A DNA stretch of 64,000 nucleotides, taken from contig CAVNZM010000001.1 of NCBI GenBank assembly GCA_963693365.1, positions 19,290,125-19,354,124 of the forward strand, read 5' to 3'. The notes beneath the pieces were generated by a model. The model did not search any database and was not told the origin of the DNA. It saw nothing but the letters and a program-made list of their open reading frames with translations. This DNA is from Amoebidium appalachense (lineage: Eukaryota; Protista; Ichthyosporea). Below, in pieces: positions 482 to 3,400 of this stretch. The first letter of the stretch is position 1, and the number at the start of each line of letters is the position of its first letter. The position numbers were made by a program, and so were the translations under genes.

Positions 482-3400
482 GTGGCGGACGTTACCCCCG
501 CATACAATCCGGACAACGAGGACGACCTGGGCCTCGGCCTGAGTGACGAGTCGGGCTCACAGACCGGTTCCGGTTCGGATTTCTCCGGGTCAGACTCGGA
601 AGGTGACGACAGCTTCCCCCTCCCACCGCCCAACCCCCCCAGCGGTTCCCCTCCAGGGTCTTTCACAGACGAACCACCCAACCCACCCTCCGAATCACCC
701 CCTCCCCCTTCACCCCCCTCTCCTCCTCCTGAATCCGAGGGCAAGGGATGGGACGATAGGGTGCAGGGCGAAAACATGGACGTGGTTGGGACTGAAAACG
801 GCACCAGCCCACAAAAAGAGAATGAGGGTGAGGAGGAGAGAGGGGAGGATGCATCTGGAGAAGGGGTGGAGGGGAAGGAGGATGGAGAGGTAGAGGCGGC
901 GCCCATGGAAACGGGCGGAAAAGAGAAGGAAAAGGAGGAGGGAGACGGAGAGATGAAAGAGGACGAGGAGGGTGTGGGAAAGAAAGTGGAAGATGGGGCT
1001 GTGTCCCCCGGGCATACTCAAATGGAAGCGGAAAGAAAATCACCTAGTCCGGAGAAGGATGGAAGAAAAGAGACGGTTGTGATGGATGTCGTGGTGGAAA
1101 CGAAAACCGATGAGAAATCACCGGGAAATGTGGAACCCCAGACCAAGGATGCGGAGAATGTCGAAACACGGGAGGAAAAATCCCGTGAAGGCAGCCCGAC
1201 CATAGTTAAAGTTTTTGTAAGCAGTGACAGCCCGTCGCCTAATCCTCCACACATGTCAGAGAGAAAAGATAGCATGGAAAAGGGAGAACTGATTACGAAC
1301 GAAGAATTGAAATCAAGTGTGGGTGTAAAAGACAACACGCCGGAGAGTGGGGAGCTCGGATCGGAGGAGGGGGAGGTGGAGAGGGAGACGGACGGTTCGG
1401 CATTGGCTGTGGGGGCGGATGCAGGCGTCAAGATTAAGTCACCGTCACCCGAGGTGTGTGTTTGGGGTGTGTGTGTGTGTGTGTATGGGGGGGGGGGGGG
1501 GGGGGAAGAGGTGGGGAGGGGGTCGGAGTGAAGGTTTTGGAAGTGGAATTTGCTGTTGGGAGCGTGTGCAGGGAAGTTGGTGTGCATTGATGGCTTGTGT
1601 GTGTGTGTGTTTGTGCACGCATGCATACATGCGGGCGGGCGGGCGGGCGGGCGGGCGGGCGGGCAGGCAGGCATGTGTGTTTTTGTGTTGGGCAAGCGTG
1701 AGGATTTTGAGGTTTTTGGGGCTTAGGACCCGCAGGAAGCGGGGGATGGGGGTGGGGATGGGTGCGTATGTATGTGTGTGTGTGTGGGGGGGGGGGGGGG
1801 GGGGGGGGGAAGGGGGGGAAGGGGGAGTGCTAATGGTTATGCCTTGGATCGGTCATGGTTCTTCACTCTATGATGTGTTGGAGCATGTTGATGGGTTACG
1901 TTATGTTGTTCTTTTGCATTCCTTTTTATCTAGGGGCATAAGATGGTTGTTCTGAAACGGTTGCTGTTGCAGGCATATCTAACACGAGCCAAAGTATTAT
2001 GGGTGTAGAATAGGGATGGGGTGTGAATTGTAAAGGTGATTCCTAATCAAAGCCCCCCCCCCCCCCCCCCTCCCCCCCCCCCTCCCCCCAAACAACAACA
2101 GCAACAACCACCACCACCACCACCACCACCACCACCACCACACACCCTCACCCACTCACCCCCCCTCCCCCCCCCCCTCCCCCCCCCCATCTCCACTCCA
2201 CCCGCCTCCCTTTATTCCTTTTTAAACAGTTTGACATGTTTGCTGCCGAGACCGATCTGGACGTTTCAAAGACAAGGTCACCCCGTGAGGGTGAAAGCAG
2301 AGACAAGAAGAGGCGGCTGGATGGGTCACCAGAAAAGGTAAATGTGTGTTGTGTTTGGTGTTTGGTGCTGGGCCACGTGTGGCTTGTCTTTTATAGCACT
2401 GGGGGTTAGTGTCTCTTTATTTCCGGCTTGCTGTGATTCTGGTTGTTGCTCATGCAACCATGCACCTGCCACACACATACACACCCGAACACACTTAAAT
2501 TTTACATCCATCATGGTTTTACTGCTGTCTTCGCAGCACTAGCGACACCATTGGACACGCATGTGCCCGAACGCGCGCGCGCGCACACACACACACACAC
2601 ATGTATTCTTGGCTGCTTCTCTCCAATGTTCCCCATTTACACACGTACTCTACATCCTCCGCCGCAAAAAACCTACTTTAAAGCCTTTGCCCAGTCGTTT
2701 TTATGGTATGCGCCGTTCACTTGACATATGCCCCCCCCCCCCCCCCCCCCCCCCCCCCCCCCCCCCCCCCCCACCCCCACCCACCCACCCCCCCATCTGC
2801 CTACCCTTTTGCAGCTGTAAACTCAATCATCCCCTCACGCCTACCCTCCCACCCCCACCCCCCCTTTGCCCCCCCCCCCTGAGTTCCTATCTATATTTTT
2901 CTTGCTTCTGCTTACTGCTGCAACTTTAACCCCCGGCCTTTCCCACTGCCCTTGCCTGCATAAGCAACCCTGCTCGTCTCTGATCAAGACGGGTGACCTA
3001 CTCATGTTCAAGTGAAACAGTATCTGAGTTGGGTTTCGTTAACGAGGGGAATAGGTCGAAACTCGGGTACTGTGGATGACGTGGGCCCCCCCTGAGGATG
3101 GGCTCTGCTTATTATGCATACTCTTTATGTATGGCTTGCATTCTGCATCGTGTTATCCGTTTATCCGTTTGTTCTTGTGTACTTCGTACTTTTTGACGCA
3201 TTCAAACCCCCCCCCCCCCAAAAAAAAAATAATTAAATAAATAAAATAAAATAAAATAAAAGCTACGTGTGCTTCATACTCACTTTACTGCCCCCAGCCT
3301 CCGCATGTGTCTGTCGGGGATGAAAAGTCGCTGGCTGAGAAACGCCCTGGTGACGTCGATGCTGATAGGGTATGGAACCTCCTCCCCCCCCCCCCTCCCC

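Follow-up and report, generated by a model that had tools for sequence, protein, structure and literature searches.

A type-SGC hammerhead core with a predicted kink-turn near the 3' end of a high-copy, likely Penelope-like repeat of Amoebidium appalachense

Three diverged copies of a structured RNA from the ichthyosporean Amoebidium appalachense contain every piece of a hammerhead ribozyme core, in an order that belongs to none of types I, II, and III. This raises the question of whether such an RNA can assemble a hammerhead and what kind of element carries it. The copies lie in a 64,000-nucleotide stretch of DNA (GenBank assembly GCA_963693365.1, contig CAVNZM010000001.1, positions 19,290,125 to 19,354,124, forward strand), referred to here as the window. 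An initial annotation had proposed a pseudoknotted hammerhead in which the CUGAnGA strand docks into the loop of the stem III hairpin. The reading that we favor, with moderate confidence, is a hammerhead core in the order S-G-C (blocks defined below), predicted to cleave itself after GUU. It is carried by a high-copy repeat, close to the 3' end, and this repeat is likely a Penelope retroelement of Chlamys/Naiad-like type, or a non-autonomous derivative of one, that inserts into (C)n runs. That the RNA self-cleaves in some state is, judged from sequence, highly probable.

Inspection of the sequence confirmed all three RNA copies at the positions given in the initial annotation, and an alignment of the three reproduced its invariant blocks between diverged helices. 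The closing stem P0 was as described (7, 8, and 7 to 8 bp), with both sides changed in three of the seven aligned pairs, and the central helix falls in the stem III register in all three copies. The core is complete in each: CUGAnGA, CGAAA, NUH, and the A15.1-U16.1 and G10.1-C11.1 pairs are all present, and the cut positions predicted earlier (after 3030, 8517, and 39228) are correct. In every copy the blocks run cleavage site, GAAA, CUGAnGA, which is S-G-C with two pseudoknots. Here, S comprises stem III, UH, and stem I; G comprises stem II, CGAAA, and stem III; and C comprises stem I, CUGAnGA, and stem II. CUGAnGA starts 35 nt after GAAA.

A hammerhead descriptor covering all six block orders gave exactly three matches in the window, every one of them SGC, and none of type I, II, or III (orders CGS, GSC, and SCG). 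When 300 dinucleotide shuffles were searched on both strands with the same descriptor, two matches in any order were obtained, and none was SGC with a stem III of at least 7 bp. The pattern for block C had three exact matches and one with two mismatches; the expectation was 0.58. No copy reached the gathering score of any Rfam model (the best was Hammerhead_1 for copy 1 only, at 14.2 bits against a cutoff of 34, E = 2), so no strong match to a known non-catalytic RNA, which the initial annotation had named as a possible objection, was found. The canonical types were rejected because only SGC was found and the Rfam hammerhead models fell far under their cutoff; a ribozyme on the opposite strand was rejected on the six-order descriptor, run on both strands.

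The stems adjoin the core blocks directly. Stem III extends 12, 10, and 7 bp beyond the A-U pair in copies 1, 2, and 3, respectively, and stem I has 3, 3, and 4 bp. Stem II has one bulge and is better drawn as 2 bp, one bulged base, and 3 bp, giving 4 pairs in copy 1 and 5 in each of the other two. A 5' hairpin (hairpin A) pairs over 8 to 9 bp with no bulge. Of the pairs in the full structure model, 42 of 43, 44 of 44, and 44 of 45 are canonical in copies 1 to 3. Among the 33 pairs aligned in all three rows, 98% of the cells pair and six pairs are changed on both sides, a result matched by 1 of 500 shuffles; this count used a MAFFT alignment from which columns with copy 2 out of register were omitted, and the structure was derived from the same sequences.

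The initial annotation also stated that no natural example of this fold had been described. The fold stands and this statement does not, as type-SGC hammerheads were published in 2023 (Eckert et al., PMC10085705). Our structural reading agrees with that experimentally validated form, including the extra U after A9, which also appears in the published descriptor as CUGAUGAUG. Eckert et al. predicted 583 such ribozymes and showed five to cleave, at 0.007 to 0.13 per minute; they report the type in metatranscriptomes only and in no genome of a known organism. With HRIMA-1 and its variants the copies share the S-G-C order, the full core, and CGAAA, and with the published variant alignment they share the CUGAnGA-U-G signature (CUGAUGA-U-G in the descriptor), GUU sites, and stem II strands of the GRGUCGAAA type. 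The published examples are viroid-like metatranscriptome RNAs with a stem I-stem II linker of about 3 nt, a stem I of 4 to 7 bp, and a helix designated 'I'. The copies described here differ in having a palindromic linker of 19 to 22 nt, a stem I of 3 to 4 bp, a bulged stem II, and a nuclear repeat as host. In addition, their stem III runs into a rod with a predicted kink-turn (k-turn), and their domain is closed by P0 and hairpin A. The published descriptor specifies 4 to 7 bp for stem I, 0 to 8 nt for the linker, and 0 to 15 nt before stem I'. These copies would escape a search with it, because stem I is too short in two of them (3 bp) and the linker is too long in all three. Our literature search, which left most subscription papers out of reach, found only the original description of type SGC and no report of hammerheads in Ichthyosporea. 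The SGC order itself is thus already published; what is new is the scaffold (k-turn, long palindromic linkers, and short stems I and II) and the nuclear repeat home.

In the SGC model, the CUGAnGA strand leaves the base of the rod through about 3 nt, yet it would have to dock at the tip of the rod. By a crude estimate, base and tip are about 73 Å apart on a straight rod and about 34 Å apart on one with a 50-degree kink. Outward of stem III, every copy has a 3-nt bulge, then tandem G·A pairs, and then a helix of 8 to 9 bp, a consensus that the initial annotation had overlooked. All three copies have the sequence features of a standard k-turn as defined in PMC8191799, namely, a C helix, a 3-nt bulge, tandem G·A/A·G pairs, and an NC helix. 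They resemble the standard k-turns (Kt-7 and box C/D; PMC8191799 and PMC5689011) in the bulge, in the tandem pairs between two helices, and in the 3b·3n pair, which is A·G in copies 1 and 2 and U·U in copy 3, both classical. They differ in being part of a predicted hammerhead and in a -1b·-1n pair other than the favorable C-G. Two of the three pairs of the C helix are changed on both sides in copy 2. Shuffled arms produced the motif at frequencies of 0.013 to 0.039 per copy, the copies not being independent. On sequence grounds the k-turn is likely to be real, and we infer that it would make intramolecular docking of CUGAnGA possible. No natural hammerhead with a k-turn was found among the literature matches listed, judged by title and the start of the abstract. 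DNA run X1 had 23 variant rows of at least 1% within the RNA domains of copies 1 and 3: none fell on the 21 core and k-turn positions, 13 were unpaired, and 6 kept or improved a pair, among them two in stem II (A3053G and U39198C).

The active structure could instead be the published four-helix form, in which helix 'I' closes block C directly and P0 together with the distal helix would be a competing off state; we regard this as unlikely. All three copies have a candidate for helix 'I' (in copies 1 and 3, GGGC/GCUU; in copy 2, GAAC/GUUC), with 6, 4, and 5 pairs, respectively. It lies at the distances seen in the published alignment, 1 to 2 nt ahead of stem I' and 1 nt past stem II', and helix 'I' is needed for cleavage by SGC-3 (PMC10085705). 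The majority allele at 39168 strengthens the candidate. However, it includes many G·U pairs and competes with P0, which it excludes (7 to 8 Watson-Crick pairs; in copies 2 and 3 their probability is close to 1.0), as it does part of the covarying distal helix. A swap at 3085/3086, seen at about 3% of the depth in DNA run X1, breaks the candidate without a listed change in its partner.

Palindromes recur in the scaffold. The loop of the invariant hairpin A differs by two changes (UGAUCA versus UGGCCA) yet is self-complementary in both forms, and the linkers between blocks S and G hold palindromes of 10, 6, and 10 nt in copies 1 to 3 (shuffle P values of 0.007, 0.15, and 0.014). They bear on the suggestion, which we consider rather improbable, that the ribozyme acts only as a dimer or between tandem copies, either with the palindromic loops pairing two RNAs or with block C docking on the stem III loop of the next copy (C-S-G, the same cyclic class). 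Besides the 10-nt palindromes of copies 1 and 3 and the conserved self-complementarity of the hairpin loop, a homodimer energy 11 to 14 kcal/mol below that of two monomers speaks for it, as does the proposal that Penelope hammerheads with palindromic loops work as dimers (PMC4209133). Such an energy gain is, however, a property of any hairpin with a palindromic loop. The usual reason for dimerization, a weak stem III, is absent here, where stem III is long and stable, and the predicted k-turn provides an intramolecular route.

We then turn to the carrier. The initial annotation had recognized an RNA family, correctly, but missed that a longer, high-copy repeat contains the ribozyme domain and inserts at C runs. 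The repeat spans about 330 to 380 bp in the window, which holds three full copies and five further 5'-truncated ones. All eight copies and fragments end no more than 4 nt from a same-strand C run, whereas only about 2% of positions lie so near one, and most of the eight also begin at a C run (boundaries were drawn by eye, and the repeat profile contained a few C's). Three fragments start at the 3' arm of stem III. The window contains 87 C runs and 100 G runs of at least 8 bases; these are the landing sites of the repeat and may partly be its product. The window also has an intron-bearing tRNA, predicted GT-AG introns, and microsatellites. Contigs of DNA run X1 matched copy 1 in 8,646 cases and copy 3 in 12,668, many being at least 99% alike, and 7,983 contigs of DNA run X4 matched copy 3. 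This is a young nuclear repeat family, probably of many thousands of copies, summed contig depth not being equal to copy number. X1 contigs show repeat 3' ends joined to internally starting copies, and contigs of the copy 1 family reach at least 440 nt further upstream. Copy 1 is nearly identical to contigs in runs X9, X16, and X18 except for an 8-nt duplication. Runs labelled as other organisms (X9, X16, and X17) yielded only two to four near-identical contigs, which we read as traces of the most abundant repeats of the same host rather than as spread. A miniature inverted-repeat transposable element (MITE) was rejected, as no terminal inverted repeats were seen by eye.

Searches outside this genome returned short patterns. 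A loose G...C pattern occurred at no fewer than 117 metagenome loci (6 of 64 parts) and 42 viral loci; applied to these 159, the SGC descriptor gave two weak matches, which were rejected as chance-like in GC-rich coding DNA. The hairpin A pattern had no viral matches, and the block C pattern occurred at 84 prokaryotic loci. Against all 243 outside loci, a profile of the three cores matched only over a short seed region (best E = 0.0012).

Insertion at C runs, 5' truncation, and partial tandem joins point to a Chlamys/Naiad element. Chlamys elements target (C)n/(CA)n, are 5' truncated, form partial tandems, and lack canonical hammerheads, and some Naiads have 'half cores' 35 to 50 nt apart (Craig et al. 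2021, PMC8557442; its main text does not mention ichthyosporeans). The repeat shares with these elements the target sites, the 5' truncation, the partial tandems, and a very high copy number, together with the lack of a canonical hammerhead and a 'half core' near the 3' end. It differs in that no reverse transcriptase (RT)/GIY-YIG open reading frame (ORF) is linked to it here. By eye, Naiad consensuses in parts 12, 16, 17, and 24 of the PMC8557442 supplement have re-ordered hammerhead cores near their 3' ends, one of them C-S-G and others S-G-C with an upstream stem II partner, whereas the core here is plain SGC with a k-turn. The hammerheads of Penelope pseudo-long-terminal repeats and of non-long-terminal-repeat (non-LTR) retrozymes (Cervera and de la Pena 2014, PMC4209133; bioRxiv 10.64898/2026.07.22.740005) likewise have an extra base between 9 and 10.1, a short helix I, a bulged helix II, palindromes, and mostly solitary genomic copies. 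Those hammerheads belong to type I, which is a circular permutation, and their stem III is weak, whereas the present core is non-circularly permuted with a long stem III. A non-LTR retrozyme, consisting of tandem repeats each with a type I hammerhead, was rejected, since the copies in the window are solitary and SGC. In the part of the literature within reach, judged by title, no relevant report of Penelope elements in ichthyosporeans was found. We consider a Penelope-like carrier likely.

Several observations weigh against the favored reading. Minimum-energy folds bury block C in a hairpin, and freeing it costs 7.8, 2.2, and 8.7 kcal/mol in copies 1 to 3; an invariant 5' strand is also able to pair with the core. 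The z-scores of the whole-element folds are unremarkable for copies 1 and 2 (-0.86 and -0.53; copy 3, -2.22). Three related sequences are a thin basis for covariation. Stems I and II show little of it in the three-row alignment, and stem I is never changed on both sides except for the extra A-U pair of copy 3. The absence of core variants is by itself weak evidence (roughly P = 0.05 by a hand estimate), and 4 of the 23 variant rows break a pair of the reference copy; three of these are the letter of the other subfamily, and one (3085) is unexplained. As the -1b·-1n pair of the k-turn is A-U or U·G and not the C-G favored by the rules in PMC8191799, the k-turns may need a protein. Most copies retain an intact ribozyme, and DNA depth in X1 has no step at the cut site, so the copies do not derive from simply cleaved RNA. 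Lastly, 259 of 260 filtered stop-to-stop segments of the window (the remaining one is the SdrD ORF described below) and 42 ORFs gave no match to RT or GIY-YIG, and for this reason Penelope membership is put no more firmly than likely.

The element might also be a relic that no longer cleaves or does so very slowly, and whose structure persists as a signal bound by the element's RT or by Snu13, or as a k-turn RNA of the box C/D type. Short stems, a GUU site, and competing folds are consistent with this, as are intact copies within predicted sense-strand introns and the box C/D-like U·U pair in the k-turn of copy 3. GUU is a weaker cleavage triplet. Nevertheless, we judge a relic very improbable: although their helices have diverged, the three subfamilies all retain each catalytic nucleotide and the A15.1-U16.1 register. 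A box C/D snoRNA in particular was rejected, since Rfam gave no snoRNA family match and the ends have no box C/D layout.

Contigs from presumed RNA runs gave a mixed picture at the predicted cut sites. In run X20 (that it is RNA is a guess), depth at position 39223 was the lowest of the 29 positions listed (5,004, with 10,122 the next lowest); at this position, 26 of 31 words span the predicted cut. Depth there was 0.32 of the median of nine hand-chosen positions; the corresponding values for DNA runs X1 and X4 were 0.96 and 0.70. Run X18 showed little dip on copy 1 (228 at 3041 versus 286 at 2999 and 3002). Contigs show neither ends, strand, nor level, and a hairpin apex can itself reduce coverage. 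Two X18 contigs ending at 3032 were rejected as cleavage ends, being explained by a common variant at 3002.

From the evidence above we infer cleavage, the kink, control by protein or dimer, and Penelope identity, and we propose the following mechanism. The RNA of the retroelement would fold the ribozyme domain near its 3' end. The k-turn, probably with the help of Snu13 (which we take to be the eukaryotic L7Ae-family k-turn binder), would bend the 25-bp rod by about 130 degrees and return the CUGAnGA strand to the loop of stem III, while P0 and hairpin A would hold both ends of that strand, the job of helix 'I' in the published SGC ribozymes. The RNA would then cut after GUU and reduce tandem or read-through transcripts to single units, a role that has been suggested for Penelope hammerheads. 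Single copies within introns may cleave only slowly, given the short stems, the GUU site, and the competing folds, and the ribozyme may be switched on when the L7Ae-family protein Snu13 binds or when palindromic loops pair to form a dimer. With G/C runs as targets, copying would start from the fixed 3' end and frequently break off early. Because full copies retain an uncut ribozyme, the RNA that served as their template would have been uncut, re-ligated, or circular, in line with proposals for other Penelope elements (PMC4209133). A stronger version, which we offer only tentatively and hold to be doubtful, is a protein-switched natural hammerhead whose core assembles only when a Snu13/L7Ae-bound k-turn folds the scaffold back, in an active (C)n-targeting Penelope-like family of thousands of copies.

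Should this stronger version be true, it would, together with the Naiad motifs, imply use of the 'reversed' cyclic class (SGC/CSG/GCS) throughout the Naiad/Chlamys clade, in protists and animals alike, a clade reported to be without hammerheads. Non-circularly permuted hammerheads would move from anonymous metatranscriptome contigs to a nuclear genome, and a likely culturable host with a young, very abundant family would make their biology testable. A k-turn-gated hammerhead would be a ready-made protein-responsive RNA switch. The coordinates of the repeat copies and of their predicted RNA elements are collected in Table 1.

Table 1. Repeat copies, RNA domains, and predicted k-turns in the window
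Feature	Position	Strand	Details
Copy 1, repeat	2880..3206	+	Between two C runs; inside predicted sense-strand intron ~2338-3297 (by eye)
Copy 1, RNA domain	2960..3112	+	P0 2960-2966/3106-3112; hairpin A 2972-2994, palindromic loop UGAUCA; distal helix 3001-3010/3077-3085
Copy 1, type-SGC hammerhead	3028..3105	+	GUU 3028-3030, predicted cut after 3030; stem I 3031-3033/3089-3091; palindromic linker 3036-3045; stem II 3053-3057/3100-3105, 3102 bulged; CGAAA 3057-3061; CUGAGGAU 3092-3099
Copy 1, predicted k-turn	3008..3079	+	C helix 3008-3010/3077-3079; bulge AGU 3011-3013; G3014 A3015; 3b·3n A3016·G3074; G3075 A3076
Copy 1, k-turn NC helix (stem III)	3017-3029/3061-3073	+	
Copy 2, repeat	RNA domain 8446..8603, runs to C run near 8729	+	Predicted sense-strand intron ~8341-9025 (by eye)
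Copy 2, RNA domain (most diverged)	8446..8603	+	P0 8446-8453/8596-8603; GUU 8515-8517; CGAAA 8546-8550; CUGAUGAU 8582-8589
Copy 2, predicted k-turn		+	Bulge 8498-8500; GA 8501-8502; A8503·G8564; GA 8565-8566
Copy 3, repeat	39031..39375	-	Between two C runs
Copy 3, RNA domain	39301-39141	-	GUU 39230-39228; stem I 4 bp; CGAAA 39197-39193; CUGAGGAU 39162-39155
Copy 3, predicted k-turn		-	Bulge 39248-39246; GA 39245-39244; U39243·U39180; GA 39179-39178
Decayed 5'-truncated copy	7958..8099	+	Stem III 3' arm to 3' end; between C runs; nhmmer E = 4.8e-7
5'-truncated copy	11810..11939	+	Only 3' tail; ends at C run; nhmmer E = 2.9e-6, blastn 1e-14
Decayed 5'-truncated copy	28418..28575	-	Ends at C run; nhmmer E = 2.9e-4
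Decayed 5'-truncated copy	62112..62245	-	Between C runs; nhmmer E = 1e-4
Possible old 3' fragment, weak	27272..27388	-	Between C runs; nhmmer E = 0.17

Other features of the window were also noted. An intronless 249-amino-acid ORF with no Pfam match (39838-40587, minus strand) is followed on the same strand by copy 3, about 460 bases past its end; its 3' untranslated region may include or adjoin copy 3. An 18-bp inverted repeat with its arms about 70 bases apart in an AT-rich stretch (~38175-38290) is, by eye, MITE-like or a hairpin. The tRNA at 23908-23992 (minus strand) was called Leu by ARAGORN; by eye it is a tRNA-Tyr(GUA) with an 11-nt intron. Weak, exon-sized Pfam hints were obtained for a helix-loop-helix domain (62122-62589, minus strand; E = 8e-5), glycosyl transferase 1 (24430-25440, minus strand), and replication factor A3 (16267-16800, plus strand). 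An intronless riboflavin kinase (36018-36563, minus strand) has its best match, at 62%, to an Ichthyophonus-type gene model, which points to an ichthyosporean as the probable host. Finally, an uninterrupted 1185-amino-acid ORF (53657-57214, plus strand) encodes about ten SdrD B-like/carboxypeptidase-regulatory repeats, a bacterial adhesin-type protein among intron-rich surroundings and a possible case of gene transfer.

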